64,000 nucleotides of DNA from Macrostomum lignano (taxonomy: Eukaryota). The DNA is taken from the NCBI GenBank assembly GCA_002269645.1, contig NIVC01000551.1:310001-374000 (forward strand), read 5' to 3'. Numbering within the stretch: position 1 is the first letter of the stretch; the number at the start of each line of letters is the position of its first letter. Below the pieces are notes generated by a model that did not search any database, was not told the DNA's origin, and saw only the letters and a list, made by a program, of their open reading frames with translations. Below, in pieces: positions 24,401 to 63,519 of this stretch. The position numbers were made by a program, and so were the translations under genes.

Positions 24401-27400
24401 ATGCCCGACTGGGTGAGCCGGTGAATTCGCCATCTAACTGGGATGCACTCGAATCGTTTGGCCTCCTCGTCCGAGGCCTGCTCAATGTTGCGGCCAAGGA
24501 AGGGGCCGTTCTGCCAGTAGGGGTAGCGGAAACCCGGCAGGCAGTGGCACATGTAGCCGCCACGTTGGAAACCGTAGCCGGGCAGGGGCTCGCACTGGAA
24601 TCGGGAATATCGTTAATACTTGATCCTCAATAGATTATCATTAATCCTTATTCCTCAATAGCACTTACCGTAGTAGTTGAACCACACCTGGCCACGCCGC
24701 TCAGGTAAGTGTGATCCGGCGACTCCACCCCTCTCTTGCAGGGGTCAAAGTCGATGCGGCGAAAGTCAATGTCCGACGTGGACACCGCTACGTACCTGAG
24801 GGGGGCAGGCACGTGTTTGGAATTGATGAGGTTGGAGGCTGAACCAGCAACTGACACTCTGGAAGGCTAGCCCAGCAACTGAGGATGTGGGAGGCTGGCC
24901 CAGCAACTGAGCATCTGGGAGGCTGGCCCAGCAACTGAGGATCTGGGAGGCTGGCCCAGCCAACTGAGGATGTGGGAGGCTGGCCCAGCAACTGAGGATG
25001 TGGGAGGCTGGCCCAGCAACTGAGCATCTGGGAGGCTGGCCCAGCAACTGAGCATCTGGGAGGCTGGCCCAGCAACTGAGCATCTGGGAGGCTGGCCCAG
25101 CAACTGAGGATGTGGGAGGCTGGCCCAGCAACTGAGCATCTGGGAGGCTGGCCCAGCAACTGAGGATGTGGGAGGCTGGCCCAGCAACTGAGGATGTGGG
25201 AGGCTGGCCCAGCAACTGAGCATCTGGGAGGCTGGCCCAGCAACTGAGGATCTGGGAGGCTGGCCCAGCAACTGAGCATCTGGGAGGCTGGCCCAGCAAC
25301 TGAGGATGTGGGAGGCTGGCCCAGCAACTGAGGATGTGGGAGGCTGGCCCAGCAACTGAGGATGTGTGAGAAAACAGCCAGAAGAGAAGCAGGAAGCTAC
25401 ATCAGACAAGCTATATAAGTCCTATGATTCAGTGCCGCCAGATACGCGCGCAACCATTTACGCATTCAAGCAGACTTAACTGCAAACAAGCCCGACAACA
25501 GGTGGCTGAGGCCAGCCAATCAGAATAGAAAATGGTCCTGAACAATTTCTAAAATTACTTCAAACAGCTCCCAGCCTACTCAAGCCTTCACGTTCATCAA
25601 TTATAATTAAAATCGAATCAACAGTTTTGCCTAGGAGCTGTTAAAATAGAACAATTACGCAAAATTATTCTCAAAATACACAGATGCTTAAGCCAATCAA
25701 TGGATGTTTGAATGGATGATCAATGGAGCAGACAATTGAGAAAGCAGGCGCACACGCTCACACAGGGCGTATAGCTACCCTTTTCAAAGCTTAGTTCAAT
25801 TTTCACTGGCCATGTATAGTGCTAGAAAGTTATTGACGATACATATCGGCGGAGAGTCATTATTGTCGGCTTCATTTTTATATATCTTATCTCCCTCTCT
25901 CTTATCTGCCTCTCTCTTATCTCCCTCTCTCTTATCTTCCCTCTCTTCAATCTGCCTCTCTCCTGTCTCCCTCTCTCTTATCTGCCTCTCTCCTGTCTCC
26001 CTCTCTCTTATCTGCCTCTCTCCTGTCTCCCTCTCTCTTATCTCCCTCTCTCTTATCTGCCTCTCTCCTGTCTCCCTCTCTCTTATCTGCCTCTCTCCTG
26101 TCTCCCTCTCTCCTGTCTCCCTCTCTCCTATCTGCCTCTCTCCTGTCTCCCTCTCTCTTATCTCCCTCTCTCTTATCTCCCTCTCTCTTATCTGCCTCTC
26201 TCCTGTCTCCCTCTCTCTTATCTGCCTATCTCCTGTCTCCCTCTCTCCTATCTGCCTCTCTCCTGTCTCCCTCTCTCCTATCTGCCTCTCTCCTGTCTCC
26301 CTCTCTCCTATCTGCCTCTCTCCTGTCTCCCTCTCTTCTCTCTCTCTCTCGTCTCCCTCTCTCATCTTTCCCATCTCTATCCAATAAACAGCCAGCAAGA
26401 CAGGCACTCACTTGGGACTGCGCAGGTTAGTCTCGATACTGTAGCGCCTCATAAAGTCGATAACGGGGCCAACACTGCTGACTAGCCACATGTTGGTCCT
26501 GCCGCAGTCGAAGTAGGGCCTACTAAAGTACACAGGCTGATAATTCTCTTGAATGCCAGGCGATGGCGGGCCGAAGAACCTTCGAGTCACGTTGGGAGTT
26601 TTGCCCATCACGCCGGGGGAGCTAGAGTTGTAGATGTTGTAGTCGTACTGGTGCTTGGCTTGGTTGTCCGTTCTGCGCGGGCGGGGTGACAGCAAGGTGA
26701 CAGAATGATATACACTGCGATACAAATTTGTCAGTACATTCTCGCATCTACCTACTACTTTATCTACTTACTTTACAAACTAGTAAAGTAGTCTAGTAAA
26801 TCGGATTAATTGTCATTCTCAAATATAAAATCTGCTCAATCCTTTATCCAGAAGCTGCTCAATCATTTATCCAGAAGCTGCTCAATCCTTTATCCAGAAG
26901 CTGCTCAATTTTTTATCAAGAAGCTGCTCAATCATTTATCCAGAAGCTGCTCAATCCTTTATCCAGAAGCTGCTCAATCCTTTATCCTGAAGCTGCTCAA
27001 TCATTTATCCTGAAGCTGCTCAATCCTTTATCCAGAAGCTGCTCAATCCTTTATCCAGAAGCTGCTCAATCCTTTATCCAGAAGCTGCTCAATCCTTTAT
27101 CTTGAAGCTGCTCAATCCTTTATCCTGAAGCTGCTCAATTCTCTATCCTGAAGCTGCTCAATCCTTTATCTTGATGCTGCTCAATCCTTTATCCTAAAGC
27201 TCTTCAACCCTCTATCTAAGCTACCAAATGTACTCTAACATATTCATTAAAAAATCTGCGTTAGAAAAAGGGGCAGTTCTACCTGAGATCTGGTATGAAG
27301 TCAATCTTAATCCTAGGATCGGGATCGTACAAGAACAGCGGATTAAGCCGGTGCCATCTAGCCGTGTAGTTGTGATTCGGCCCGGCGCCCAGGTCCTCCA

Positions 27401-34049: not shown

Positions 34050-34253
34050 CCCCCCTTATATGCAAGTCCAGCCATGGCAAAGGGGGGCGGCTGCCACTGC
34101 ATCCACCACTAAGTAAAAATAATAAACTGGCTAACATATACCTAATAAGTTATAAGATGAATAAAATCTGAGAGTACACACAATACCGAATACAATTAGC
34201 AAATAACTATAAACTATTATTTAGATTTACCAAAGCTATCTCTTAATTGTCAG

Positions 34254-35118
34254 TGTAGTGCATGCGCCCTTGTCAGTTGGCAGGGCGCGTTGCACTTTGG
34301 GGCTGGTTGGGGGGGTTGGCGGGCGTGGCAGGGTTTGGCCGCCGGCCGGGCTTTGCGCGTGCCCCTCCCCAGCCGTGCCCCTGCCCCGTGCTCAGGGCTG
34401 GTTGGCTGCGGCCGGGCCAGCTTTGGCGCGGGTGCAGCCCCTCCCCCCTTAGGCGGGGTTTTGATTGGCTGGGCCGGCGTGGTTTGTTTTGGTGAGCTTA
34501 GCCGGTGGGGCCGTCTGCCCCAGGGTTTGGGTGCTATTTATGGTGCGACTCTGGCTCTTGCCCGCCACCTGCGTGCTTTTTGTGTTTTGGTGTGCTCCGA
34601 GAGTGCAAGCGCGAGACCTGATAAAAGAAACAGCAACATTAGCTACTTCGATAAAAGAAAGACAATAGCCTAATTGAGAAGAGTCTTGGAGAATTAAGAA
34701 GAAGTCGGAAACTGCGCTTGAGACCTGTGAATAATAAACGGTGAACAGTCATCTGGCCACTGGTAAGCCGCCTGCTGTTTGAGTCCTTTCTTTTCGGGAA
34801 GCTTGCTAGGCCGAATTCTTGCCAGAGCGTCATAACGCCGGGAGACCATATAGCTTCTGTAGTACGGTACCGTTTACCATATATTGCGTACGCCCTACGG
34901 TATAGAGAATAGAAGCACTCGAGAGTGTCACCACACCTCGAGCCGCAGCGTGAACTCTGAGTGTCACAACACCAGAGGGATCAAATTATTATCGCAGAGC
35001 GTCGCCACGCCTGCTCGTCGTATTCATAAAAGTACAGACAGAGCGTCACAACGCCTGTTATATCACATATAATATATATTGTACTCGGGACTGGGCACCC
35101 AAGCCGACCCGGGTTACA
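34254..35118 (+). repeat. Element A 5' LTR
   Basis: tgtagtgcatgc...gggttaca; ORF-track translations identical to those of the 3' copy. Confidence 0.95.
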
Positions 35119-35124
35119 ACAAAT

Positions 35125-36287: not shown

Positions 36288-36417
36288 GCCCCTGCAATTC
36301 GTCAGCCTCCGAACAAGCCGTCATCTCATCTCATCATCATCAAACGCCCGGTACCGCATCTCATCAGCATCCAGTGTCCGGTACTGCGGCTCATCAGCAT
36401 CCAGTGTCCGGTACTGC

Positions 36418-37453
36418 TGATGTGTTCCTTATTACCCGACTTCGGTAATCAAAGAACAATCACTTCTAGCTCTTTAGCTAGGCAACCCAGTAATTCAAAC
36501 GAAAGTATTCAATTACCTTGACTTCTTATGAGATATCTCTCCTTTTAGTCCTTCGTAGATCTCGTGTAGATCTCGATCTGTAGTTCAGGCCTGAATTCGA
36601 CTCGACTTGTAGTCCTGGTCCGAGTTTCTCTTTCTTCTTTTGCCGGCCGGTATCTGTCGTTCGGACCAATAAGAAGCTTCCAAATTAACAATGGGTACCC
36701 TGCGCCAAACTGCGGTTTAATATAAGCCTACTCCTTCTAGCAGTGCCTCTATGCACTCTAGGTATAGCTCCGGAAACCACTGATAGTCTTCTAAGATCTA
36801 TCAGGGGCAGTCCTTCTGGAGACTGCAACCAGTAGAGTCTAAACAGACTCAGGAGTCTCAACAGACTCAAACTAAACTCCAACGAGACGTCTCAAAACAC
36901 AGGCGCAAATGAGTAAGGCTTACCGCAAGAACTCGACGAGTCTTCAGTAGGAAGTCCTGTAGTGGCTTCCTCTTCGGAGCTCTTCTCCTTCCGGAGGAAT
37001 TGTGGCTCCGGGTCCGTTCCGGACCACTTGTATTTATAGGCGTTCAGACCTCTCTCGAGGTCGTACATCACTGTCTTCGCAAATGTCAAAGGGTCACGAT
37101 TCGGTGGCTGTCAAGCATGACAGGGTAGAAAGTTGCGCAACTAGTCTACTGTAAAAGCGCATGATTGGTTACCGTAGCTGGTAGACTTTGATTGGTTCAT
37201 CCGGGTGCAACCCGAGTGCAAACAAAATGATGACTTGAAGGTGGGGTTTGAATTGACAGTTGTTGGTCGCACGTGATTGGGTGATTTCTAAAATTAGCAT
37301 GCTCGAGGTCTCTCTCTTCCTATTGGTTAGTCCGAATATACTTATAGTTCAAAGCATACCTTTATTCATGCTCTTCAATTTACTACTAAATAAAATGTGT
37401 GAGTAGTACATTAACACTTTTATGTCTTCTTACGGGAGGTAGAACACTCTACA
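36418..37453 (-). repeat. Element B 3' LTR
   Basis: Direct repeat of 46012-47047; TATAAATA on the minus strand at 37031-37038. Confidence 0.95.
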
Positions 37454-37674
37454 AAATCTCCCATGTTTACAAAAAACTCGTCCCGAGTTTTAAATTATAG
37501 AGGATTGAAACGCATAAAAAGTGCAAGCATGTCTTTATAATAATCATTTGTCACAAGTGTTACAGGTATTTAGTAATGGGTAGTTAAGAGCGTTGGTTAT
37601 AAAAGTTATTTAAAGGTAAGTATACGCATGCAAATAAAATGTTTTTGGTTACAGTATTGACATGTGCGCCAAGA

Positions 37675-37887
37675 CTAACAATAGGCGCACTGCCGCAAAC
37701 TACTTCTACCTATCGGGCAATTCTGCCAGAGCTGAATATAATGTGAGTCGCTTAAATATTGTCCGCATATGCGATGTCTGTTTTCACAAATAATTGGTGG
37801 CTTGACAGCCAAGTCATCAGTTAAACATATTGGGCATTCGTAGAGTTGCTGTAGTTGGGGCGCCTGTTTGGACAGTGCGTTGCCCAT
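37675..37887 (-). CDS. Small accessory ORF of element B: N-myristoylation motif plus variant RING finger (70 aa)
   Basis: MGNALS (MGxxxS), strong Kozak context acaATGG; CPIC-x12-CxNxHxxCxxY...CPIGR...CAYC. Confidence 0.6.
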   Translation of the reverse strand: MGNALSKQAPQLQQLYECPICLTDDLAVKPPIICENRHRICGQYLSDSHYIQLWQNCPIGRSSLRQCAYC

Positions 37888-37998
37888 TGTCGTCGTCGCT
37901 TGAAGTTTGAAGTCGCTCAGATTAGTCGCCTCTTACGACAAGCTTGCGAAGCTGTAGAGCTATTCTGACCCGGTCTCTACACGGGTTGTTTTCGCAAC

Positions 37999-40900
37999 TT
38001 AACGAGGTCGCAGATTGTAGCCGTGTTGCTGTTTCTCGGTTGATGTTTGTGTCTCCTCGTGTTTTGTTGCGATGTGGCGGTTCGCCGAACGCGTGCGATC
38101 AGCGTTGTCTAGTGACGGTAAAAACGTTGTCGTGTCAGTGTTGATCTTCTTTAGTCGATGAATGTGCACGTAGAATTGGTGCTGATGAGGATCTTGCACA
38201 TTGGCCAGGCGTGCCGTTGTCGGTGACGTTAGTTGGACCACTCGATATGGTCCTTTGTACTTCTGTGCGTGTTTGTGCGTCTGTTGCGGCGGATAGTGCA
38301 GGTAGACGATGTCGCCGGCTGTCAGAGTTGTCGATCTCGTGTCGGTGCCGGTGGTTAGAGCCACCTGATTGTCGATGTTGTGCTTGGCTACTTTCCATGC
38401 GAGGTGTAGTTGCGTGACGAACTTTTGAATGGACGTCGGGACTTCCACATATTGCGATGGTAGTAGTTGCTGCGCCAATAGGTTTGGCGGCTGGAAGTCT
38501 CGCCCAAACATTAGAAAGAATGGCGTATTGTCCGTTGATCGATGAATAGCGCTGTTGTAGGCCATTGTTACTGCTTGCAGATAGATGATCCAGTCGTCCG
38601 GTTGTTGATGCGCGAAGTGTGTAATCATCTCGTGTAGGTTGCGGTGAAACCTTTCAACCATGTTCGCCTTCGGATTGTAGGTCGATGTGTAGATCTGCGT
38701 GATGTTGAGGATCTTCACCACTTGCTGAAAGAGTTGAGACGTAAACTGCGATCCATTGTCCGATGTGAGGTTCTTTGGCGTACCGTACTTGCAGATGATG
38801 TCGTTGAAGAAACCCATTGCCACTGTCTGAGCTGTGATGTCCGGTATTGGTATGGCAATAGCAAACTTTGAGAAAATGTCCAAGGCTGTTAGGATGTAGG
38901 TGTAGGCTATGCCATGGAGACAGCTCGGTGGCAGCGGTCCGGTGATGTCGATGCTGAGACAGTCCATAGTTGTTGACTTTGGTATCGATTGTAGCTGTGG
39001 TTTTTGTCGTCGTCCTGTCTTCGATGCTGCGCATGAGTGGCAGTTGTTGCAATACTGCTTGATGTCGCCATGCATGCTTGGCCAAAAGTAGTATTGCTCC
39101 ACTCTTGCAATGGTTTTGGCTGCCGACAGGTGTCCAGCGAGTGGGTTGTCGTGCAGCTCGTTGAGAATTGCCTGCCTAAACGAATATGGCATGTAGATTT
39201 TAGGTTTGTTGTCACTCATCCAGTAGAGTCGTGACTTGTTGATTGTTAAATGTTGTCGCTGCTTGCGCAGGAATTTTCGTTCCACGGGGCTGAGCTTGAC
39301 GTCCTTGTCGTTGTTTTTAACTGCTATGTAGAAGTTGTCGTGTTCAGTCTCATCCACCAATTCCTTGATGTTAGGGATTGGATGAATGGCGTTGACTTCG
39401 TAGGCTCTTGACAGGGCGTCCGCGGCCTTGTTAGTAATTCCTGGTTTGTAGACGAGCTTGTAGTTGTAGTCCTGGATCTTGAGTGTCATCCTGATGAGTC
39501 GGTTGTTTGTTTGTCCTTTTGTAGTTACGACGTAGGTCAGCGGTGCATGATCTGTGCGTACTATCGTCTGTAATGGAGATCCATAGATGTAGTAGTGAAA
39601 CTGTCGTAGGGCGAACAGAACTCCTAGTAGTTCTCGTTCCGTAGCTGACCATTTTGTCTCATTCGGTTTAAGTGCTCGACTGACGTAGGCTATAGGTCGT
39701 TCCTTTTTGTCTTCAGTTTCCTGTAGTAGGACTGCTCCGAGTCCCGTTCCTGAGGCGTCTGTCTCGATGATGAAGGGTTTGTCGAAGTCCGGATGCTGTA
39801 GCAGTGCGTCTGATGTCAGCTGTCGTTTGATTTCGTCAAAACTTTCTTGTTGCTTTTGTGTCCAATTCTCCTGCTTCCATTTGTCGAACTTGAGCAGGTC
39901 GTACAGCGGCTTTGCTGTCTTCGCGAAGTTGGGTAAGAACTTTCGGAAGTATTGCGCAAGTCCAAGAAATGATTGGACCTTCGTTTTGCTAGTTGGCGTA
40001 GGAAACTTTTTCACTTTATCCACGTTGTCTGGGTCCGGTGAAATTCCTTTGGCTGTCACCTGATGTCCCAGGTAACGCACGTTGTCTTGGAAGAATTTGC
40101 ATTTAGTTGGTTGTAGCTTCAGACCTTGACGTTGTATAAGCGCGAGGGCCTTCTCCGTCGCTTCATAGAGTCGTTCGAAGTCTTCTCCGTAGGCCAAGAT
40201 GTCGTCAACATAGTGCAACAGGTTCGTGCATCCTGCAAGCATGTATGCTGTTAGTCGGCTCATCGTTGCTGGGCTGTTGCTGAGTCCCATCGGCGATCGA
40301 TTGTACTCGTATACTTGTCCATTGTAGGTTTTGAAAGCCGTGTACTGTCGTGACTCTTTCTCGATTTCAATTTGCCAAAATCCATGACGTAGATCGAACA
40401 CTGTGAACAATTTTGCCGTGTTGAGCTTTGCTAGTAGTTCGGAGATCTTCGGTAGGCTTTGCTGATCCGTCGGTATGTACTTGTTCAGTAGTCTGAAGTC
40501 ACATACGAGTCGTCTTTCGTTAGTCTCCTTCTTTTGCACCAAGAGACATGGTGATGAGTATGCTGAAATGGCTTTGCTGATGATGCCGTGTTTCAGCATT
40601 TTGTCGATAATCTCATCGAAGTGCTGTTGCAGATGCTTGGCGATCGGGTACGGTTTGCACTGAATTGGTTCCGTGTGCGGCAGAAGTTTGATTTCCTGTT
40701 TGATGTCCTTGGCTCGTCCGATGTCGTAGTCATGGTGGCAGAAAGCGTCGTTGTACTTCCACAACAGCTGTCGAACTTTCCTCTTTTGCTGTTCCGTAAT
40801 CGGGCTGTCATCCAAATTGATCTTCTTTTGAAATTCTTCCTCTGTTAGTCGTGGAGTCGCTTGCTCAATCAGCATAACCGATGCTTGGGTGTTGAGATGA

Positions 40901-41508
40901 CCGATGCACATTCCTTGTCGTAGATGAACCGTTTCTGTGTTCGGGTTGAATATTTGTACTGGCAGCTGTTTATCTTTTGCAACCAGTACTAGTGCCGTAG
41001 GCATCATAATTTGGTGTTTAGCCGTGACTCTTCTGTTTGGGTCGAATATCATTGCTTCCTCCGTTGCGTTAGTTGCCTTTGCCTTTATCCAGCAGGCGCT
41101 CTCCGGTTGGATGATGACATCTTGTTGCAATGTTACTTTTGGTAGTACTCGGATCTGGTTGATCAATGGTTGTTCTACCGAGTCGATCTTAAACGTTTGC
41201 TTATTGAAGTCGAAGGTCAATGGTAGTCGAAGCTGCTTGAACGTGTCGATGCCAACAATAACGTCCTGGTTTGGGAGTCTGTCGATGACGTACGTTGGAA
41301 CTGTCAAGTGTTTATTAGCGATTCTTAAATCAATGTCGGCTTTTCCCAGAATGTTTAGCGAATGTCCTCCTGCTCCTGCAACTGCGATTGTTGCTGGCCG
41401 TAGAGCAAGTCGTAGCTTGTTGCACAGTTGTTTTGATATAACTGTGATGGAGCTGCCGGAGTCGAGTAGCGCTCGACATGGTAGATTGTTGATTACCACT
41501 TGAGCCAT
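37999..41508 (-). CDS. pol: Element B Pol (PR-RT-RNase H-IN), intact 1169 aa with its own ATG
   Basis: LLDSGS; YVDD; IETDASGTG; H-x6-H...CHSC; IDITGP / SDNGSQF / VERFH; KGPYRV. Confidence 0.96.
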   Translation of the reverse strand: MAQVVINNLPCRALLDSGSSITVISKQLCNKLRLALRPATIAVAGAGGHSLNILGKADIDLRIANKHLTVPTYVIDRLPNQDVIVGIDTFKQLRLPLTFDFNKQTFKIDSVEQPLINQIRVLPKVTLQQDVIIQPESACWIKAKATNATEEAMIFDPNRRVTAKHQIMMPTALVLVAKDKQLPVQIFNPNTETVHLRQGMCIGHLNTQASVMLIEQATPRLTEEEFQKKINLDDSPITEQQKRKVRQLLWKYNDAFCHHDYDIGRAKDIKQEIKLLPHTEPIQCKPYPIAKHLQQHFDEIIDKMLKHGIISKAISAYSSPCLLVQKKETNERRLVCDFRLLNKYIPTDQQSLPKISELLAKLNTAKLFTVFDLRHGFWQIEIEKESRQYTAFKTYNGQVYEYNRSPMGLSNSPATMSRLTAYMLAGCTNLLHYVDDILAYGEDFERLYEATEKALALIQRQGLKLQPTKCKFFQDNVRYLGHQVTAKGISPDPDNVDKVKKFPTPTSKTKVQSFLGLAQYFRKFLPNFAKTAKPLYDLLKFDKWKQENWTQKQQESFDEIKRQLTSDALLQHPDFDKPFIIETDASGTGLGAVLLQETEDKKERPIAYVSRALKPNETKWSATERELLGVLFALRQFHYYIYGSPLQTIVRTDHAPLTYVVTTKGQTNNRLIRMTLKIQDYNYKLVYKPGITNKAADALSRAYEVNAIHPIPNIKELVDETEHDNFYIAVKNNDKDVKLSPVERKFLRKQRQHLTINKSRLYWMSDNKPKIYMPYSFRQAILNELHDNPLAGHLSAAKTIARVEQYYFWPSMHGDIKQYCNNCHSCAASKTGRRQKPQLQSIPKSTTMDCLSIDITGPLPPSCLHGIAYTYILTALDIFSKFAIAIPIPDITAQTVAMGFFNDIICKYGTPKNLTSDNGSQFTSQLFQQVVKILNITQIYTSTYNPKANMVERFHRNLHEMITHFAHQQPDDWIIYLQAVTMAYNSAIHRSTDNTPFFLMFGRDFQPPNLLAQQLLPSQYVEVPTSIQKFVTQLHLAWKVAKHNIDNQVALTTGTDTRSTTLTAGDIVYLHYPPQQTHKHAQKYKGPYRVVQLTSPTTARLANVQDPHQHQFYVHIHRLKKINTDTTTFLPSLDNADRTRSANRHIATKHEETQTSTEKQQHGYNLRPR

Positions 41509-41728
41509 GGCTTTGCCAATTTCGGCGTGTAGAGTACATACGTAGTTCTCTGGCCATTTTGGGTCTTGCTGTTCTGCTTGATAGTTGGGTGGTTGTATTC
41601 TTGGTGCCGTTGGTGTTGTCGGAATCGATGGATATAGCCGCGTTGCTAGTGTCGGTTGCCCTTGAACTCACGATGTGCAGTTTCTGTTAGTTCTAAACTG
41701 TTGTCGCCTTCCGTTGTCGTTCTTTGCA

Positions 41729-43114
41729 TTATGGCATTAACTGTCTTCTTAGCTTTGGACAAGTTTGACTGAAGCACCGTACGATTGACGAAATGATGAA
41801 GATTGCCGTGACAATCCACACAATGCAAGCACCGTAGAAGATGAATCCTTGATAGAGACTGCCTCTTCCATTGAGCAGCTCCCAGAAGCTGTTTGTCCAA
41901 AATGATTTGATGGCGCTGTCCATTGAAACAAGGACGGGAAATCTTCCTGTCCCGGTTCCTTTGTCCTTTCTTGTGAACAGCTGGTGAATCATCTTGCGTT
42001 GGGTGATGAACGCTTGCAAGAAGTCGTTGATCGTCCATCCTGGTGTTATCTCGTCAAGTTGGATATCGGCGAATGGCGTATACTTCGTTCTGTTGAATCG
42101 GATTTTCAAATCCTCCATGTCGTAGTTTTCGTCGACGATTACTTCCGGTTCTGTGATGTTTGCTGTCGTTCCAGTTGTTTTGATGACGTGCAGTGCATTG
42201 TCCAGTTGATAGTAGTTTGCTGCCGTGGTGCAGGGTCTCGGTATTGCGGTGCCAACTATGATGTTGTGTACCGTGTCCAAGAATCCCTGAATTCGTTTTC
42301 CTTCGTAGAACGCTTCAATCCTTGGCTTGTCGTAGCAGGTTGTTGACGTGTTCGACGGCAAGATGTTAAAGTGCTGTATCGGCGTGCACTTGTATATCAA
42401 CAGATGCTCGTATATTGGAACTGCCAAAACGTTCGTCATTCCGGTGATTTTACGAAAAGTCATCGTAGGGTTGACATAGTAGTTTTGTCTGGCATAATTT
42501 AAGTTGATTGCGTGCATTTTGCAAGTTAGCTGGACCAGTGTTCGATGCAAGTGGTTTAACTGGTTGTGTAGATTGTGATCCAAAGCCGTTATCTTTGCTG
42601 ACAGTAGTCGGTTTGACACCAGTTTGGGACGTTCGATGTCACGTCGTCGTCTGTTCTGTTGTTCCTGCTGTTGATACGTTCCGTTGATGATCGCCAGAAA
42701 GGTTTGTTTGTCGTCATCTTTTACGTAGACTGGTATCTCTTGTTCCGAGATGAATAGTGTCTTGTCTGTATCCTTGCATTTCAGTTTTTGCTCGACTGGT
42801 TTCTTTTGAAACGTCAGTGCCAAGTCTCCTGACTTTGCCAAAAACGTGTTTGACAGTAGACCTCCTTCAACTGTGTGATACTTTTGAAGCTTGCAGTCAA
42901 TTTCCGGCTCAACTTCCCACGCGAAGAAGTATTGTCGTGACTTAGATGGTTCTTCATATCGTGAGTCGCCTCTGCGTATAATTTGCCATCGATAGTCTTG
43001 ATGATATGTTGGACTCAACGGTAAGCTGTATAGTTCCTCATTCCGCAGTATCGGCGTTGGACACCATCCTTTGCTGTATCGGCAGTCACTTAATTGCAGT
43101 TGTAGCGACTCCAT
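41729..43114 (-). CDS. env: Element B envelope glycoprotein, C-terminal part (herpesvirus gB-like class III fusogen, TM-anchored)
   Basis: Furin site NRRRRD; helical LHNQLNHLHRTLVQLTC; NPTMTFRKITG...LLIYKC; CYDKPRIEAFYEG..QGFL...PC; N-glycosylation sequons; TM FIFYGACIVWIVTAIFIISSIV. Joined to the upstream ORF by a 1-nt frameshift in an A5 run (~43114-43118). Confidence 0.75.
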   Translation of the reverse strand: MESLQLQLSDCRYSKGWCPTPILRNEELYSLPLSPTYHQDYRWQIIRRGDSRYEEPSKSRQYFFAWEVEPEIDCKLQKYHTVEGGLLSNTFLAKSGDLALTFQKKPVEQKLKCKDTDKTLFISEQEIPVYVKDDDKQTFLAIINGTYQQQEQQNRRRRDIERPKLVSNRLLSAKITALDHNLHNQLNHLHRTLVQLTCKMHAINLNYARQNYYVNPTMTFRKITGMTNVLAVPIYEHLLIYKCTPIQHFNILPSNTSTTCYDKPRIEAFYEGKRIQGFLDTVHNIIVGTAIPRPCTTAANYYQLDNALHVIKTTGTTANITEPEVIVDENYDMEDLKIRFNRTKYTPFADIQLDEITPGWTINDFLQAFITQRKMIHQLFTRKDKGTGTGRFPVLVSMDSAIKSFWTNSFWELLNGRGSLYQGFIFYGACIVWIVTAIFIISSIVRCFSQTCPKLRRQLMP

Positions 43115-45315
43115 TTTTCAAAAGGATTGTGGTAGAATGGAATATTCCTGATTAGGTAACTGTTTCGTGTCATGTAGTTAGTCCATGCTTCCGAAAAGTG
43201 TACATATCGTCCGTTTGCTGAGTTCTTCGTTCGGTAAAGTTGTGCCTCCCCCACTTTCTCATCCGGTTCTAGCTGACCATCCTTTGAGAACAGTGTTTGG
43301 TTCCATTGTAGACATTCAGCGTGCGACACATGTAGTTCGTGTTGCCAAAATCGAATTCTGTTCCACTGTCCTCGCCAAACTTTTTCTACTAGGTGCTTGT
43401 CTCTAAAGCACACTATTCCGAGTTGTCGATGCTTCTTGATGTTAGCTTTGTAGAGATCAATTGTTATCTTCTTTGGCTTCGTCTGGTTTGTCTTGAAGTA
43501 GCTGCATTTGATGTCGGTTGGTATCTTGTAGATCATCGGTTGGATATGCGCATCCGTTGGACATATCATTGGTTTCTCCATTGCTGTTGCTTTGGTGACT
43601 ACTGCCGTCAGTAGTATTATGATGATCCAGAATATCCAGAATCGCCATTTTCTGAACGTTGCCGTTGTCTTTGCTGGCATTGGCTGCGGCTGCCATTCGT
43701 TATCTTCTGCGTCCGCATCGTATTCTTCCTCTTGTTCCATTGGCGTTTCCGAGCGCAAGGCATCCGATTCGTTCCGCTGCTTGTCGTCTTCATCATTTTC
43801 TTCCTTGCTTTCTTCCGATGTTGTAGTTGTGTCACTCCATTGTCTGCGGTACCTCACTTCGGCCTTGTAGTCGACCGTTTGAATGTAGGCTTCACCATTT
43901 CGTTTATATCGGATCTCGTAGCATTGATCGCTGTCGGAGCTTAGATTTCTTTCTTCCATTCCTTTGTGCCTTCCGTCTTCATGTTCTTTGTCGGCGGCTC
44001 GGTTGTCATCAGCGTCATTCTGCATCTCATAATCGTGATCGCTGCTTTCTTCTTGCTGTTCTTCTTCCATTTCTGCATTTCCGTCGTTGCTTCTTTCGTT
44101 GTCATCCTTCGTTGCCAGTTCCTTGTCGTTGCCTTTGTTTGTTTCTTCTTTTCTTTCACTGATGTCGCTTGACAATGTTTTTTCTGTGCTCACTTCTGTC
44201 TTTTCTTCTTCGCTGTCAATGTTAGTTTCTTTCATTTCGACCATGCTGATGTTTTTTGTCTTTTCGCTGCTCTCCACATCGAGCCAGTCGATTTCATTGA
44301 TAGTGAAGTCCATTTCCAAGTCGTCTATCGTGAAGACTTGCTGCTCTTGCTGTTCGCTTTCCGGTGTGTACGTGATGGCGTTTGCATATCGTTGCATCGC
44401 TTGCGTTGGTTGCTTGGGCATGTATCTGGTGTTTCGCGGTCTGTAGCCATTGTTTCCGAAGCGTTTCGTGTTTTGCTGCTGCCAATTTTGATGTTGTTGC
44501 CATGGTTTTTGCGGCTTCCTTCTGTTGAATGGCTGTCGCTGCATGTCATTTCTTGTTGACCGATGAGGACAATGTATTTGGTAGTGTCCTTCTCGTCCAC
44601 AGTAATAGCATCTGGCTTGGGCTCGTTCATTTCGTCTTTTTTGTTCGGCGATAACGGCTGTTTGATGTTGCATCAATTTGTTTAGTTGCTGTGTCAGTTT
44701 CTGCACTTCTGTGTTGCCGGTTGTCATTAGTGGAGCGCTTGCTTCCCACTGCATTCCGCACCGTAAAAGGTCTTCCTCGGTTTCAATGTTTTCGCGTAGA
44801 AGTCTATCTCGGAGTGACGGCTGTGCATTGTTTATTACGTGCAGAATCAGATTTTGTTCGCGATCCATCAATCGCTGTCGCTCTCTAGCGGCTAATTCTG
44901 CCGCACCCAGAGGTGGTTGGTCTGCAGCTGGCAGTGTTGGCTGATGCAGTGCCTTAATTATCTGACGGATGTCGTCCACAAAGGTCAGGAAGGATTCGGT
45001 TGGCTGCATCCTTCTGTTATGCAACTTGTGCAGTAGCACTGATCTGTTTGTGCCACAGCGGTTGAAATGCGCGCGCAGTTGAATGATTAATGCTGGGTAG
45101 TTTTGCTGTGTTGCCGCATCTAGTTTACCATAAATCTCTCGTGCAGTGCCTTGGAGGAGTGGTGGCAACAGTTGCGCTTTTTCTGGATTTTGTAGGTTGT
45201 ATTCCCTACATACCAGGTCAAAATGATCAACAAAGGTGTTAAAGTCTTTTTCCATAGAAAAGGTGCCAACTGTCTCTTTGATATCTCTGTGCACCGTTGG
45301 ATTGCGCCGCGCCAT
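43090..45315 (-). CDS. gag: Element B Gag fused in frame to an acidic linker, internal signal sequence and Env N-terminus
   Basis: Capsid-like FVDHFDLVC..., CCHC CYYCGREGHYQIHC, ~250-aa D/E-rich linker, FWIFWIIIILLTAVVTKATA, then a Cys-containing ectodomain. Confidence 0.85.
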   Translation of the reverse strand: MARRNPTVHRDIKETVGTFSMEKDFNTFVDHFDLVCREYNLQNPEKAQLLPPLLQGTAREIYGKLDAATQQNYPALIIQLRAHFNRCGTNRSVLLHKLHNRRMQPTESFLTFVDDIRQIIKALHQPTLPAADQPPLGAAELAARERQRLMDREQNLILHVINNAQPSLRDRLLRENIETEEDLLRCGMQWEASAPLMTTGNTEVQKLTQQLNKLMQHQTAVIAEQKRRNERAQARCYYCGREGHYQIHCPHRSTRNDMQRQPFNRRKPQKPWQQHQNWQQQNTKRFGNNGYRPRNTRYMPKQPTQAMQRYANAITYTPESEQQEQQVFTIDDLEMDFTINEIDWLDVESSEKTKNISMVEMKETNIDSEEEKTEVSTEKTLSSDISERKEETNKGNDKELATKDDNERSNDGNAEMEEEQQEESSDHDYEMQNDADDNRAADKEHEDGRHKGMEERNLSSDSDQCYEIRYKRNGEAYIQTVDYKAEVRYRRQWSDTTTTSEESKEENDEDDKQRNESDALRSETPMEQEEEYDADAEDNEWQPQPMPAKTTATFRKWRFWIFWIIIILLTAVVTKATAMEKPMICPTDAHIQPMIYKIPTDIKCSYFKTNQTKPKKITIDLYKANIKKHRQLGIVCFRDKHLVEKVWRGQWNRIRFWQHELHVSHAECLQWNQTLFSKDGQLEPDEKVGEAQLYRTKNSANGRYVHFSEAWTNYMTRNSYLIRNIPFYHNPFEKWSRYNCN

Positions 45316-45989
45316 GTTGTTGATGGGATAGAACGGTAGCTCTAGGTCTGGGTCGATTTGTAATGGATCTTCCAGTGTGGTGTTTCTTTCGAAATAAACT
45401 TCGGTTGTAACTGATTGTCTTGCGGTGCTTTTGACACCTCAATTTGTTATGTCTGACCTTGAGCGGAATTCGGCTTTTGGCTGCTTTTTCTGACCTCTTA
45501 TTCGCTGGCTGATTTTCGCACTTATGCGGCGTCCCGCAAAGTGTATCTTTAAAGTGCTTGAAGTGCAGCTGCTTCTTGCTTTTTTCAAAGGCCTTTCTTG
45601 TCTTCGTGACGTGCCTTGTCACGTTTTATCAAATTTCGGTTTGTTTTAGCTTTCGTCAAGTGTTTTTAATTTCGGTTTTGTTTTAGTGTGTATTGATTAT
45701 TTTTCGGTTTGTTTTCAGTGTACCGGACGTTGTTTTCGGTTTTGTTTAAGGTTTACTCTTGCTCGAGCTCGTTAAAAACAAAAATTTAACACGCGTGCTC
45801 AAACGTTACTCAAAATTGACAGGTACTCAAGCCTGTATATCTAAACTTTTACTCGAGTTTCAAATCGTACAAAAATCGAAAAGTGTCGAAAAGTGTTACC
45901 TCTAACACGTGCGCGCAAAATTAATGAAGTCGCTCTTTCGTCACTTTACAATAGCTTGGCCAGGCTATTGCTCAAAAGTTTGAGTAGTG

Positions 45990-46009
45990 CCGAGAGGGCG
46001 AGATCACCA
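45990..46009 (-). promoter_or_regulatory. Putative PBS of element B (tRNA species unassigned)
   Basis: TGGTGATCTCGCCCTCTCGG begins 2 nt after the 5' LTR, consistent with a tRNA 3' end ...CGAGAUC-A-CCA. Confidence 0.6.
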
Positions 46010-46011
46010 AT

Positions 46012-47047
46012 TGATGTGTTCCTTATTACCCGACTTCGGTAATCAAAGAACAATCACTTCTAGCTCTTTAGCTAGGCAACCCAGTAATTCAAACGAAAGT
46101 ATTCAATTACCTTGACTTCTTATGAGATATCTCTCCTTTTAGTCCTTCGTAGATCTCGTGTAGATCTCGATCTGTAGTTCAGGCCTGAATTCGACTCGAC
46201 TTGTAGTCCTGGTCCGAGTTTCTCTTTCTTCTTTTGCCGGCCGGTATCTGTCGTTCGGACCAATAAGAAGCTTCCAAATTAACAATGGGTACCCTGCGCC
46301 AAACTGCGGTTTAATATAAGCCTACTCCTTCTAGCAGTGCCTCTATGCACTCTAGGTATAGCTCCGGAAACCACTGATAGTCTTCTAAGATCTATCAGGG
46401 GCAGTCCTTCTGGAGACTGCAACCAGTAGAGTCTAAACAGACTCAGGAGTCTCAACAGACTCAAACTAAACTCCAACGAGACGTCTCAAAACACAGGCGC
46501 AAATGAGTAAGGCTTACCGCAAGAACTCGACGAGTCTTCAGTAGGAAGTCCTGTAGTGGCTTCCTCTTCGGAGCTCTTCTCCTTCCGGAGGAATTGTGGC
46601 TCCGGGTCCGTTCCGGACCACTTGTATTTATAGGCGTTCAGACCTCTCTCGAGGTCGTACATCACTGTCTTCGCAAATGTCAAAGGGTCACGATTCGGTG
46701 GCTGTCAAGCATGACAGGGTAGAAAGTTGCGCAACTAGTCTACTGTAAAAGCGCATGATTGGTTACCGTAGCTGGTAGACTTTGATTGGTTCATCCGGGT
46801 GCAACCCGAGTGCAAACAAAATGATGACTTGAAGGTGGGGTTTGAATTGACAGTTGTTGGTCGCACGTGATTGGGTGATTTCTAAAATTAGCATGCTCGA
46901 GGTCTCTCTCTTCCTATTGGTTAGTCCGAATATACTTATAGTTCAAAGCATACCTTTATTCATGCTCTTCAATTTACTACTAAATAAAATGTGTGAGTAG
47001 TACATTAACACTTTTATGTCTTCTTACGGGAGGTAGAACACTCTACA
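46012..47047 (-). repeat. Element B 5' LTR
   Basis: Apparently identical to 36418-37453. Confidence 0.95.
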
Positions 47048-47800
47048 CTGCGCCTCATCAGCATCCAGTGTCCGGTACAGCGTCTCATCAGCCTCCAGTG
47101 TCCGGTACTGCGTCTCATCAGCATCCAGTGTCCGGTACTGCGCCTCATCAGCATCCAGTGTCCGGTACAGCGTCTCATCAGCCTCCAGTGTCCGGTACTG
47201 CGTCTCATCAGCATCCAGTGTTCGGTACAGTACCTCATCAGCATCCAGTGTCCGGTACTGCGTCTCATCAGCATCCAGTGTCCGGTACTGCGCCTCATCA
47301 GCATCCAGTGTCCGGTACAGCGTCTCATCAGCCTCCAGTGTCCGGTACTGCGTCTCATCAGCCTCCAGTGTCCGGTACAGTATCTCATCAGCCTCCAGTG
47401 TCCGGTACTGCGTCTCATCAGCCTCCAGTGTCCGGTACAGTATCTCATCAGCATCCAGTGTCCGGTACTGCGTCTCATCAGCCTCCAGTGTCCGGTACAG
47501 TATCTCATCAGCATCCAGTGTCCGGTACTGCGTCTCATCAGCCTCCAGTGTCCGGTACAGTATCTCATCAGCATCCAGTGTCCGGTACAGCGTCTCATCA
47601 GCATCCAGTGTCCGGTACTGCGTCTCATCAGCATCCAGTGTCCGGTACTGCGCCTCATCAGCATCCAGTGTCCGGTACAGCGTCTCATCAGCCTCTAGTG
47701 TCCGGTACTGCGTCTCATCAGCCTCCAGTGTCCGGTACTGCGTCTCATCAGCATCCAGTGTCCGGTACAGTGCCTCATCAGCCCCCAGCGTCCGGTACTG
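47048..47800 (+). repeat. 30-bp coding tandem repeat in the element A gag-pol junction (continues 36345-36417)
   Basis: cctcatcagcatccagtgtccggtactgcg units encoding (S/P)HQ(H/P)PVSGT(A/V). Confidence 0.95.
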
Positions 47801-50800
47801 CACCTCACCATCAACTAGCCGGTTTTGCACAGTCGCAGCGCCCAATCACCGTCAACGCACCTCAGTCAATTCAAATCAATCCTGCGTCGATATATGTTAC
47901 GGCCTCAATCGCAGGGCGGAGGGTGAACGCGCTAGTGGACTCGGGAGCTTCCTGCACCATTATCTCACGGGAAGCTTACCAAAGTATGCCGAAACAGAGC
48001 GTCAGAGATTTGGCCGGTGCTGAAGGCTACGTTAGCTTAGCAAACGGCAGCCCGATCGAAATCGAGAGGACAGTCCTGTTGCGACTGTCAATCGCTGATA
48101 AAGTAATAGATACTCCAGCCTTGGTAGTCAGCGGAGTGAAGTACCAACTGGTATTGGGATCCGACTTCTGCAGGGACAACAGTTGCGTCATCGACTACAA
48201 GACAGCTGTCTTTTCAGTGCAGGACACTGCAATCCCGTTCCGATGGCAAGCTGAGCGCCCGATCGTTTGCAGAATTTTGGCGACAAGGTCCAGCACAATA
48301 CCGCCAGGTCATCAAGCAGTTCTGTCAGCAAGGCTGGAGAGCAAAGGACGACGGAACAGAGGGTGTGTCGGTCTAACTGAGAATCTCGGAGCGAACGATT
48401 TGGCAGCTGGCCGCTGGCTTGCTAAGGCCTTAGTGATCCCAAATAGCGGCAGCCGTCTGCCGACTCGACTCATCAATATCACGGAAGAGCCAGTCAGAAT
48501 TCGCCAAGGTTGTACGCTCGGGTGGTTCTGCCCCCTAGAATCCACCGAACCGTTGAACACCATCAAGCTCTTAGCCGTAGAGTCAGGAGACGATCCACAG
48601 GAAGAGCCGAAGGTCCAAGGCAGCAACAGCCCTTCGGAAGCAGACTTGCTACCAAACTCGTATGGCGACTGTGGACTGTCGACGAAAGAAGACGAATAAT
48701 TTAGAATCCTTGTCCGGAGTTACAGCGATGTGTTCACGACCAAGCAGACTTCAAGCAAGTTAACTACCGTGGTGGAGCATGAAATTAACACCGAGAATGC
48801 GCGCCCAATCAAAATCCCACCGCGTCGTCTGCCTCCCCACTTACAGCCAGAATTAGATCGTCAAGTCAACGAGTTGCTGGAAAAGGGGCAGATCGAAGAA
48901 GCACAGTCGCCATGGTGCTTTCCTTTGGTGTGCGTAAAGAAGAAATCAGGGGAAATGAGGATGTGCGTCGATTATCGGAAGTTGAATGAGGTCACCGTCA
49001 AGGACGCAGTGCCGATGCCGAGGGTCGATGATGCGCTGGAGGCAGTACACGGCGCCAAGATCTTCTCGACAATGGACCTTCACAGCGGGTTTTGGCAAGT
49101 AGGGGTGAGACCTCAGGATCAGGACAAGACGGCGTTTGCAGTGCCGCATCGCGGACAATTTCGATGGAAGGTTATGCCGTTCGGCTTAGTGAACAGCCCA
49201 GCAACATTCACCAGGTTGATGGCAGCCGTTCTGGACAAGCAGATGTGGAAAACCTGTCTCGTCTACATCGACGATCTACTGGTTTGGTCAACCGACGTGG
49301 ATGAACACCTGAGAAGACTGGAGGAAATATTCAGCAAGTTGCGGCAAGCAAATTTGTGCCTGAAGCCCCAGAAGTGTCACTTTTTGCAAAAGCAAGTGAA
49401 ATTTCTCGGTCACACGCTGTCGGCTGCTGGCATCAGTACCGATGAGGAGAAAGTTCAAGAAGTGAAGAACTGGCCAACACCGCGATCCTCGACGGAGCTG
49501 CATTCATTCTTGGGCCTGTGTGGCTATTACAGAAAGTTTATTAAAGATTTCGCCGCAATAGCAGCGCCTCTAACTCGATTGACAACAAAAGACGCAAAGT
49601 TTGAATGGAAAACGGAACAGCAGCTGGCGTTCGAAAAATTGAAGGAACGAATGACAAGTTCAGAGGTTATGGCTCATCCGGATTTCTCCCCGGATGCCGG
49701 AGAGTTTATCCTCGATACTGATGGCAGTTCGAAGATGGGCATAGGAGCGGTACTTTCTCAAGTCCAGCCAGATGGAGCAGAACGAGTGATCGCCTATGGG
49801 TCCAAGACACTAAATCAAGCCGAACGCAACTATTGTACGACTCGTTTAGAACTACTAGCGGTTGTGACTTTCATCATGAAGTTCAGATACTATCTGCTGG
49901 GAAAAGCGTTCTGTCTGCGAACGGACCACAGCAGCCTGCAATGGTTAAAAAACTTCAGTGACGCCGAGGGACAGGTTGCTCGCTGGTTGGAGAAGTTGGC
50001 TCCATTTCAGTACCGCATCGTTCACAGACTAGGTCGATCGCATGGCAACGCGGACGCAATGTCGAGGAAGCCAGTACGGAGACATTTCGGAGCGGAGACA
50101 TGCCCGGCATGTGCGCAGCATCCAGAAGGACTAAATGCAGTCGAATTTGAACGATTCTCAGCCGGCAATCTGGCAAGCGAGCAGGATCAAGATGACGATT
50201 TGAGAACAGTAAAGGAAGCGCTTGGCTCAAACCCAGTTCCAGATAAAAGCGAGACAGCTTGGAGTCCACTGGCTAGAGCCGTCTGGACTCGAAAAGACGA
50301 CCTGGTGCTGCAAGAGAACGTGCTCCTTGTGAGAAACAAAGACAGGCGCGATGAGTATCAAATGGTGCTGCCACGAAAGGCATTGGATCGTATCTTGAAA
50401 ACCCTACACGAGGGAGTGGGAGGTGGCCACATGGGCTTTGCGAAGACAAAATTTAAAGTGCTTCAGCGCTACTGGCGTCCAGGATTGTCTCGTGCCATTG
50501 AAGAATATATTCGCGGTTGTGCCACCTGCTGCAAGTCAAAGCCGGGCAAGCGAAACCGAGCACCCCTGCAACCGTTGACATTCGCAGCACCATTCGATTG
50601 CGTCATGATGGACATTGTCGGGCCGCTACCGCGGAGTAAGGCTGGAAACATTTATCTCCTGACAGTCCAAGATTCGTTTACGAAGTGGCCTGACGCGTAC
50701 CCGCTTCGCAACCAGAAGGCAAGGACGGTGGCAAGGGCGCTTTTCAATCGATGGATTAGCCAGCATGGATGTCCGAGTACTTTGCACAGTGACCAAGGAA

Positions 50801-52131: not shown

Positions 52132-53641
52132 ATGGATTTGTACGCTGTCCTCCAAGTCGGACACACAGCCGAACGTGCCGAGATCAGGCGAGTCTATCGA
52201 CAGCTAGCGCTCTTCTGGCACCCGGACAAGCACCCGGACAAGGAACTCGCAGGACGCCGTTTCCAAGAAATTGAGACTGCTGGTAGAATTCTATCGTGTC
52301 CATATCGCCGACCAGTTGGGCGATAAATCAATCCCGTATGACGAGGCTGTAACCTTCGCAATGACGTTCATACCTCCTACTGGTGTAAGAATGCCGGCGG
52401 ACATCGAAGAGGGAGTACAGCAAAGGCGAGAAGTTGAAGAAGCTCAGCGCAAGGAAGCTGGTCTCAGGCAGGGGAGACAGGGACAGAGGAACGATTACGA
52501 AGCGGATGGCTACATTCTAATCTCGGACGACGATGAGAGCGAGGAGTCGGATGAATGTAGCATCGACACAGAAGAAGAAGACGAGTGGCTGGCATCGGAT
52601 GGCTCCTCCGGAAGTAGTGAGTCAGAAGCTATGGAGATCGATGTACCGGAAAGCAAGGAGGTTGTCTCACATCGCGCGTCGGGAGCAATATGGGATGATG
52701 AAAAGCTGTCGTTATCGGCAGCTGCGCGTCAGCTCCGCCATCGTTTGATGAAGCATATTTTGGCTGGACAGTCGGACGGAATCGTGTCAGTGCTCACGGC
52801 TATGAGACGGCTGTTTCGAGACTCGCAGCGAGAACCGAGGAGCGCACTGTCAATGGTCCTGCTGCAGGCGTTGTTCTTCATCCGCAGAGATATCGCTCCG
52901 GTAAAGCGTCAGAGAGCAGGCCGCCGTTACTGGTCTAGGCAGAGTTTTGATTGTTTCGTCCGACAGCTCTGTCACGAGCTCATCCCGCTGTTCGGTTTGC
53001 GCCGGCCCGGCAGGCTGCTCGAGGTCCTGAAAAGCTGCGTCGGTCTCCCTGGACTTCGGGTTCGCTGGGGTGCCCAGTTCCGATTCATACTGTATTTTCT
53101 GCTTACTTGTATGTATGTTGTTACGCTCGTACTGTATGGGTTTATTTGCATGCTAGTGGGGTCAAGCTTCCTGGGGGAATGGCTCAGCAGCTGGGCGGCG
53201 GCCACGTGCGCTTCCTGCCGGCTTCTGCGGCGGCCACCTGCGCTTCCTGCCGGCTTCTGCGGCGGCCACGTGCGCTTCCTGCCGGCTTCTGCGGCGGCCA
53301 CCTGCGCTTCCTGCCGGCTTCTGCGGCGGCCACCTGCGCTTCCTGCCGGCTTCTGCGGCGGCCACGTGCGCTTCCCGCCCGGCCATCTGCGCGCCTCGCC
53401 CGGCCGCCTTCGCATCTTGCCGGCCACCTGCGTGCCCTGCCGGCCATCTGCGCGTCCTGTCGGCAACCTGCGCTTCCTGCCCGGCCATCTGCGCGTCCTG
53501 TCGGCAACCTGCGCTTCCCGCCCGGCCATCTGCGCTTCCTGCCGGCCACCTGCGTGTCCTGTCGGCAACTTGCGCGTCCCGCCCGGCCATCTGCTCGTCC
53601 TGCCGGCCGCCTGCGATGGTTTTCTGTGCCGCCAGCTTTGA
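52132..53641 (+). CDS. Element A ORF3: J-domain (DnaJ) + acidic region + hydrophobic segment; one +1 frameshift near 52310
   Basis: MDLYAVLQV...EIRRVYRQLALFWHPDKHP...FQEIETAGRILS is a J-domain with HPD (52219-52227); acceptor ttgctttgcag directly precedes the ATG; continues in ORF 52271-53641. Confidence 0.75.
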
Positions 53642-53859: not shown

Positions 53860-53871
53860 AGGAGGGGAGGG
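53860..53871 (+). promoter_or_regulatory. Polypurine tract of element A
   Basis: aggaggggaggg immediately before the 3' LTR. Confidence 0.85.
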
Positions 53872-54736
53872 TGTAGTGCATGCGCCCTTGTCAGTTGGCA
53901 GGGCGCGTTGCACTTTGGGGCTGGTTGGGGGGGTTGGCGGGCGTGGCAGGGTTTGGCCGCCGGCCGGGCTTTGCGCGTGCCCCTCCCCAGCCGTGCCCCT
54001 GCCCCGTGCTCAGGGCTGGTTGGCTGCGGCCGGGCCAGCTTTGGCGCGGGTGCAGCCCCTCCCCCCTTAGGCGGGGTTTTGATTGGCTGGGCCGGCGTGG
54101 TTTGTTTTGGTGAGCTTAGCCGGTGGGGCCGTCTGCCCCAGGGTTTGGGTGCTATTTATGGTGCGACTCTGGCTCTTGCCCGCCACCTGCGTGCTTTTTG
54201 TGTTTTGGTGTGCTCCGAGAGTGCAAGCGCGAGACCTGATAAAAGAAACAGCAACATTAGCTACTTCGATAAAAGAAAGACAATAGCCTAATTGAGAAGA
54301 GTCTTGGAGAATTAAGAAGAAGTCGGAAACTGCGCTTGAGACCTGTGAATAATAAACGGTGAACAGTCATCTGGCCACTGGTAAGCCGCCTGCTGTTTGA
54401 GTCCTTTCTTTTCGGGAAGCTTGCTAGGCCGAATTCTTGCCAGAGCGTCATAACGCCGGGAGACCATATAGCTTCTGTAGTACGGTACCGTTTACCATAT
54501 ATTGCGTACGCCCTACGGTATAGAGAATAGAAGCACTCGAGAGTGTCACCACACCTCGAGCCGCAGCGTGAACTCTGAGTGTCACAACACCAGAGGGATC
54601 AAATTATTATCGCAGAGCGTCGCCACGCCTGCTCGTCGTATTCATAAAAGTACAGACAGAGCGTCACAACGCCTGTTATATCACATATAATATATATTGT
54701 ACTCGGGACTGGGCACCCAAGCCGACCCGGGTTACA
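53872..54736 (+). repeat. Element A 3' LTR
   Basis: Direct repeat of 34254-35118. Confidence 0.95.
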
Positions 54737-55281
54737 AGTTCAAAGTTGAGGTTAAGATCAAGGAATAGGGCCTTCTTAAGCCTAATTTAAAATTGTAAGG
54801 CCAATGCAAAACGCGACACGACACTAGCAGTAGACATGTTAAATGTTAAGATAGAGCCTGACTATTACTTCTCACTCAATTTCTGTCTGCCAAATTATGT
54901 GGAACATCTCATACCCACCCTACCGTTAAACGAACGTTCCCTCAAAAGGGGGTGATACATTTACTCCATTGGCGCATAGAAAATTTTAATTTATTTAATT
55001 AAATTATGATACTCCATCGATTATTTAGTAATGATTACGGTCCTGGGCGGCTCGCCGGGCGGTAAGTATCAATTAAGGCTGACAGGATCATTGGTAGGCA
55101 CTACATGTACATGCAAGTGATTGATTTCTATAAGATATGCTCTGAGGCCCAAGCAGCCTCCAATCAAGGCCTGAAGAAGGCCGAATCCATAAATCTCAAT
55201 GGAGGTATATTTATTAGTCATTAATCAGTTCAAGAAGCTTAACACAGTTATATGCACGCTGTAAGCTGTGATTTCTATCAA

Positions 55282-59838: not shown

Positions 59839-60029
59839 GGAAGCCTTGGTGACAATCTGTTGCGTAAAATAATGGAACTTCAGCGACCAACAGTAAGAAC
59901 GATGACGCTCAGCTTCTCATAGAGAAAGACAAACATTGGCTTCTTTGTCTTTGTCTTCTTCCAGTTTTACATTACACAGATCATGGGAAGAATGATAATT
60001 CCAGGTTTCCCCTCCCACATTGGTCTATT

Positions 60030-62528: not shown

Positions 62529-62540
62529 GCGGACACCCTG

Positions 62541-62705: not shown

Positions 62706-62809
62706 TGTCGGCAGTGCGGCCTACGTTTGCACACAGGCATCGAAACGCTCCCAGTGACATTGTCTCACGCATGAATGGCTGGCAATGCACTTTGTTGATG
62801 TTGAATGGA

Positions 62810-63478: not shown

Positions 63479-63519
63479 AAGAACATGTTATTGCTGACTG
63501 TTGACTGTCATGAGCCATC

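Follow-up and report, generated by a model that had tools for sequence, protein, structure and literature searches.

The window analysed here is a stretch of 64,000 nucleotides from the flatworm Macrostomum lignano (GenBank assembly GCA_002269645.1, contig NIVC01000551.1, positions 310,001 to 374,000 of the forward strand), and positions below are counted from its first letter. It contains a long terminal repeat (LTR) retrotransposon, element B, on the minus strand at 36418-47047, in which Gag, an envelope protein (Env) resembling herpesvirus glycoprotein B (gB), and Pol follow one another in that order. An earlier note, made from the letters of the window, had described this element as a Gag-Env fusion with a separate pol downstream.

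Element B is bounded by a 5' LTR at 46012-47047 and a 3' LTR at 36418-37453, each 1036 bp long, with TG...CA ends and 100% identity to each other. A 12-nt primer-binding site (45998-46009) starts two bases inward of the 5' LTR, and the same 12-mer was present in seven of eight sibling loci, the eighth being truncated at a contig end. No tRNA genes were detected in the window. The 4 bp target-site duplication (36414-36417, second copy at 47048-47051) lies within the gag-pro region of element A, another LTR element. Because the LTRs of this host element are 100% identical, the insertion of element B is recent. With its LTR pair, primer site, and target-site duplication, element B is classed by its sequence as a young Ty3/gypsy (Metaviridae) element of a multi-copy family in M. 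lignano. No extra open reading frame was found within its LTRs.

All coding features of element B are read on the minus strand. The first frame, 782 codons at 43090-45438 with its Met at 45315, is stop-free from the CCHC knuckle to the start of env. Gag (44569-45315) comprises a capsid-like region and one CCHC knuckle (44569-44610, codons 277-290), recognised by reading the frame and by Pfam matches below the cut-off (DUF1759, E 0.0033; zf-CCHC, E 0.029-0.063). A low-complexity linker of 304 amino acids (43687-44568), basic and then acidic (25% Asp plus Glu), follows in frame and leads into a putative internal signal sequence (43582-43686). The latter consists of a basic n-region, a hydrophobic core, and a small-residue c-region with a putative cleavage site; by hydropathy, the hydrophobic segment covers codons 597-621. 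The Gag reading with its knuckle, long linker, hydrophobic segment, and Cys-rich env start, as proposed in the earlier note, was therefore borne out in this frame.

The second frame (41729-43117; 462 codons) contains the remainder of the Cys-rich domain, the furin-type site RRRR (42641-42652), and a second hydrophobic segment (41756-41848), which by hydropathy may be a transmembrane (TM) stop-transfer anchor. RRRR and the two gB-like motifs on which the earlier note had relied are present in this frame. The gB-like (class III) ectodomain spans 41849-43581, and its frame is broken in the assembly at 43114-43118, at the run of five that had already been pointed out. The env-pol junction (41666-41755) carries two further frame breaks in the assembly; it is uninterrupted in the open copies described below and in the M. 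lignano proteins ALD16272 and PAA64473, both of which run from env through the TM segment into the protease without a break. Pol (37999-41667) encodes an aspartic protease (PR), reverse transcriptase (RT), RNase H (RH), and integrase (IN) in the Ty3/gypsy order (Pfam gag-asp_proteas, RVT_1, RT_RNaseH_2, Integrase_H2C2, and rve), with no Peptidase_A17 among its Pfam matches.

One reading frame across copies

Twenty loci, the window locus among them, were fetched from the M. lignano genome. Six of them carried a single stop-free frame of 2480-2538 codons in the order CCHC, env, PR, RT, and IN; two of the six had been picked because they were already known to be open, and the unbiased count is four of 18, one of which is truncated where its contig stops. 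Among the open copies are subfamilies with an env identity as low as approximately 63%. The linker stays open across these subfamilies at 28-59% amino acid identity, the lowest value being that of the most divergent subfamily (env identity about 63%), in which its length also differs. The layout of the signal segment was common to all six open copies, in agreement with the internal signal sequence proposed earlier. When the genome was searched at the protein level, 92 of 229 candidates yielded a total of 95 env matches, of which 12 lay within open frames of at least 2370 codons. A DNA search of it, in which 18 of 181 candidates were scored, gave 34 matches, including ten that were full-length with 97-100% identity; these counts are lower bounds, and a match does not equal a copy.

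The ratio of nonsynonymous to synonymous substitution (dN/dS), obtained by simple counting on copies that recombine, was 0.01-0.03 for Gag in copy pairs, 0.33-0.38 for the linker, and 0.06-0.13 for Env in three copy pairs, the fourth pair being saturated in dS. On these sequence comparisons, Env is under purifying selection.

Since the open copies, ALD16272, and PAA64473 all run env into the protease, the product of the family as read from its sequences is Gag-Env-Pol in one chain and not the Gag-Env protein of about 1195 amino acids that had been expected to end in a C-terminal TM segment. The chain does not end at the second hydrophobic segment: the window copy has two further breaks behind it, and in the open copies the frame continues into the protease. 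Thus, pol does lie downstream, as had been stated, whereas its separation from Gag-Env is not supported, nor is a structural polyprotein apart from pol. No stop separating gag and env in all siblings was seen.

Thirteen broken copies were compared pairwise with an open copy, one of the comparisons covering just part of the frame. They showed 57 frame-changing gaps, scattered along the frame, five in-frame gaps, and two substitution stops, neither of which fell between gag and env. The frame-changing gaps were enriched at single-letter runs, 11 of the 57 lying at runs of at least four against 4.9% of random places. The window copy itself has three breaks, at 43114-43118, near 41754, and at 41666. 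In contigs assembled from short reads, the window form at 43113 and at 41754 was not carried in any of four runs, and the form at 41666 was not carried in three of the four and was found at half depth in the fourth. As the window forms are missing or in the minority in these contigs, the three breaks are most likely assembly errors. Two of the runs, guessed to be RNA, gave contigs of uncertain kind that cover most of element B; none of eight joints was taken as an intron, and these contigs are uninformative on expression or splicing.

A programmed frameshift at 43114-43118 was considered and rejected, since copies with an open frame do without one and the sequence there does not have the form of an XXXYYYZ heptamer.

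The envelope and its likeness to herpesvirus gB

The likeness of the envelope to gB had been noticed by eye. The 462-residue env piece of the window gave a Pfam Monjiviricetes_fusion match below the cut-off (E 1.1e-5) and no match in a phmmer search against the PDB, and a single-sequence structure model of the same piece was discarded (pLDDT 34.6). A profile of the env family, built from 41 natural sequences and searched against PDB sequences, matched 18 of them, all herpesvirus gB (best E 1.1e-13), and the matches covered both the N-terminal and the helix-crown parts.

We also modelled the unbroken natural ectodomain of a sibling copy as a monomer (pLDDT 78.5, pTM 0.55). The env of this copy has six N-glycosylation sequons, in line with the several that had been reported, and 12 ectodomain cysteines. 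The model matched the gB of Kaposi's sarcoma-associated herpesvirus, varicella-zoster virus, herpes simplex virus (HSV) 1, and Epstein-Barr virus at E values of about 1e-20 (best 1.8e-21). A fold search among viral proteins also returned glycoproteins of nyamiviruses, chu-like viruses, and entomopoxviruses, with a nyavirus G in third rank. As judged by profile and model, the envelope has the gB/class III fold, indicating that the call made in the earlier note was right. Fold and cysteine pattern are alike in herpesvirus gB and the element's Env; in contrast, sequence identity is 10-16%, and the element's Env lies within a polyprotein and comes without a gH/gL or gD partner. The gB-type ectodomain sits between the signal/TM segment and the second TM segment.

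Proposed assembly and rival readings

As the sibling copies show, the whole coding capacity of the family is one frame, Gag-linker-signal-gB-like Env-TM-PR-RT-RH-IN. We propose that it serves to deliver all parts of a particle together for budding, and to this reading as a whole we give a probability of roughly 80%. The order, the single frame, the fold, the selection, and the youth of the element are shown by the sequences and models above. We infer the topology from the hydropathy pattern and from established membrane-protein biogenesis, and the cleavages, particles, and transmission described here are likewise conditional. Gag would be the first part made, on the cytosolic side. The internal signal sequence would then thread Env into the lumen of the endoplasmic reticulum (ER), its basic residues staying on the cytosolic side, and host signal peptidase would cut behind the signal segment, by which Gag would stay held to the membrane. 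The second hydrophobic segment would stop transfer, leaving PR-RT-IN back in the cytosol behind an Env tail of about 95 residues. Env would trimerise, become glycosylated, and be cut by furin at RRRR, while the element protease would release RT-IN, the capsid, and itself. In this way, the spike would reach the same membrane as the capsid and the enzymes and leave it with them by budding, and the gB-like protein would mediate entry into another cell, most plausibly from soma to germline or stem cells. The stronger form of this proposal, in which these elements are infectious analogues of retroviruses with an equimolar polyprotein, a signal-anchored Gag, PR-RT-IN as the tail of Env, and fusion by a gB without partners, is put forward tentatively, as possible rather than probable.

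Several observations weigh against the single-chain proposal. As they stand in the assembly, 14 of the 20 loci are interrupted or truncated, and 39 of the 57 frame-changing gaps lie away from runs of three or more. Short-read contigs merge different copies and lose infrequent variants, which means that they cannot prove the window locus to be unbroken. The TM-scores of the gB fold matches are just 0.36-0.46, with a root-mean-square deviation above 11 A, for a monomer model of pTM 0.55. Retroelements usually make Gag in excess, with which a 1:1:1 output of Gag, Env, and Pol is at odds, and no signal balancing the three was found, the Met and heptamer candidates being unconvincing.

The Met candidate bears on the alternative that the balance is set at the RNA level. 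According to this reading, splicing, trans-splicing, or early polyadenylation gives mRNAs for Gag only or for Env(-Pol), and the signal sequence is N-terminal, starting from a nearby Met. Such a Met was found 38 codons ahead of the env start motif in four of five open copies, and single-frame retroelements often balance Gag and Pol through splicing. However, the Met is missing in the divergent subfamily, and a Met no more than 40 residues before the hydrophobic core occurred in just two of 11 distant homologues. The open linker with its dN/dS of less than 1 also speaks against this alternative, as an intron that is skipped would not need such constraint. We therefore consider RNA-level balance unlikely, although it is the alternative that survives best.

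It is also conceivable that Env is retained for a function apart from entry, such as that of a membrane scaffold in assembly or in budding into the ER, and that the element moves within the cell only. Herpesvirus gB needs gH/gL and gD for fusion, which would fit this reading, and the text of Chary and Hayashi (eLife 2026, PMC13524379) calls the entry route of gB-carrying elements unknown. In contrast, the whole ectodomain, the cysteines, and the furin-type site are kept under purifying selection, and the close fold matches include the G proteins of nyamiviruses and chu-like viruses, which have a single glycoprotein. A role without entry is accordingly quite unlikely in our estimate.

Programmed ribosomal frameshifting close to the env-pol junction could end most products after Env, giving an excess of Gag-Env over Gag-Env-Pol; this is the reading closest to the alphavirus analogy drawn in the earlier note. 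Four of five open copies, that of the divergent subfamily among them, share an in-frame XXXYYYZ heptamer whose position, between the second TM segment and the protease, does not differ. However, it is missing in the fifth and may just reflect a conserved Pro-Lys dipeptide, and heptamers of this type are weak slippery sites. We regard this frameshift as improbable. Finally, the three breaks in the window copy might suggest that the Gag-Env fusion is an accident of that copy or of the assembly, an idea refuted for practical purposes, as the fusion recurs across several subfamilies, in a second M. lignano family, and in more distant homologues.

If the proposed mechanism is right, the family would represent an alternative way of building an enveloped retroelement particle. 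It would also show, in a natural setting, whether a protein with the gB fold works alone, a question left open in the text of PMC13524379. As the family is young and multi-copy and its host is a transgenic-ready flatworm, assembly could be observed in the natural host.

Homologues, known systems, and neighbouring features

A protein of 96% identity is named as a retrovirus-related polyprotein of M. lignano, and all ten members of its cluster bear that species name; a word-indexed search for longer homologues returned one protein. A second gag-env-pol family of M. lignano (P0012, P0051, and P0052; Mlig009479 and Mlig014599), with an env 29% identical, is annotated as single proteins of 2852-2859 amino acids containing CCHC, env, PR, RT, and IN. 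Among 40 distant env homologues at E values up to 0.001, a CCHC was present upstream in the same chain in 14, a protease motif downstream in 15, and both in eight, many of the rest being short fragments. All 11 examined homologues with an upstream CCHC have a hydrophobic segment, and 5-27 residues separate its end from the env match. Of 20 homologues looked up, three were from nematodes (Panagrolaimus superbus and, twice, Ditylenchus destructor) and one from M. lignano. The gag-env-pol order and the in-frame Gag-Env fusion, which had been put forward on the window copy, are thus found in open siblings, a second family, and homologues, indicating at the sequence level that the fusion characterises the family and is no peculiarity of that copy.

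Several of the homologues had further arrangements of their own. The second M. lignano family has an insertion of about 200 residues between two env matches. A related env stands at the C-terminus of a Bel/Pao-type polyprotein in P0039, behind a NADAR domain in P0019, and between protease domains on both sides in P0035.

The novelty implied for the arrangement was not upheld. The text of Chary and Hayashi (PMC13524379) describes 'ancient errantiviruses' of nematodes, bryozoans, and flatworms that carry only HSV/gB-type ENV in the order GAG-ENV-POL, some with ectodomains flanked by two TM segments, states that GAG-ENV-POL elements are not one clade, and credits Sacco et al. (2022, J Gen Virol, PMID 35550022) for the flipped env-pol order in nematodes. 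A supplement to that paper lists one M. lignano element, Platyhelminthes_Rhabditophora_Mlig_errantivirus_2, as ENV_HSV with 16 copies. Like element B, this entry has a 12-nt primer site (PBS_revComp), identical in the two, a Ty3/gypsy pol, and a gB-type env between gag and pol, and is multi-copy in the same species. From LTR end to LTR end it measures 9728, against 9706-9747 at three loci of a sister subfamily and 9594 in the window copy, and on these table entries, rather than on sequences, the window copy is probably a sister subfamily of it. The arrangement with a gB-type env has therefore been reported before as a type and probably for this family too, and the present finding opens no new class. 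The text of the same paper speaks of three ORFs and mentions neither a single polyprotein nor how one would be processed, although its figures, GitHub data, or other supplements may do so; the words 'polyprotein' and 'frameshift' do not occur in the preprint text. Nor does the article text describe the assembly route proposed above, with Gag anchored by the signal of Env and the enzymes as the tail of Env. What we add is modest, namely that the three genes form one polyprotein in a flatworm, open over deep divergence and with a conserved internal signal.

The arrangement is not described in PMC12801592, PMC4604429, or PMC7084138, supplements aside; the words 'envelope' and 'glycoprotein' do not occur in the text of the first, whose family table may include the element B family. 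A literature search combining M. lignano with retrovirus-related polyprotein or with envelope found nothing.

Among known systems, the nematode endogenous retroviruses (NERVs) reportedly have a continuous gag-env-pro-pol ORF, a metavirus RT, and a Nyamiviridae G-like env, and are said to be limited to chromadorean nematodes and to carry extra ORFs. The flatworm family matches the continuous frame, whereas the host of element B is a flatworm and the element has no extra ORF. Alphaviruses and flaviviruses place capsid, internal signal, and glycoprotein in one structural chain and use class II fusogens; the likeness to element B is an analogy of working only, as the fusogens are unrelated and in element B the enzymes follow Env in the chain. 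Drosophila gypsy and ZAM and Bel/Pao elements such as Tas are likewise LTR elements with a captured viral fusogen, but unlike element B they have the order gag-pol-env, with a Bel/Pao pol in the Tas type. In Drosophila errantiviruses, the env is of the F type and has an mRNA of its own.

In two copies of the family, L017 and L018, pol is followed by a further frame (263 codons in one, about 215 in the other; L017:348-1829 and L018:3-1478, minus strand) with weak RING-finger matches below the cut-off (E 0.001-0.009). A 3' LTR like that of the window was not found at these loci, and the frames may be captured genes or flanking DNA.

Element A, which hosts element B, extends over 34253-54737, and its identical 867 bp LTRs (34253-35119 and 53871-54737) mark it as young. 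Element B interrupts its gag-pro region; it also contains a tandem array of 30-bp units at about 47050-47800, and a stop at 48697-48699 separates its protease and RT frames. A J-domain gene with an HPD motif begins behind its pol and inside its LTRs, at 52132-52290 on the plus strand (Pfam DnaJ, E 7e-15). Its frame is apparently broken soon after, and an overlapping frame of 477 codons (52208-53641) has no Pfam match; the J-domain stretch is possibly a captured chaperone-like accessory gene. Elsewhere in the window, an exon-like stretch at 23794-24612 on the minus strand gave a weak match to the GPR158/179 extracellular domain (E 5e-4) and is probably part of a host gene. Long simple and tandem repeats with 8-bp and 28-bp units and low-complexity frames occupy about 5260-6800, 9490-12400, and 59900-63500.

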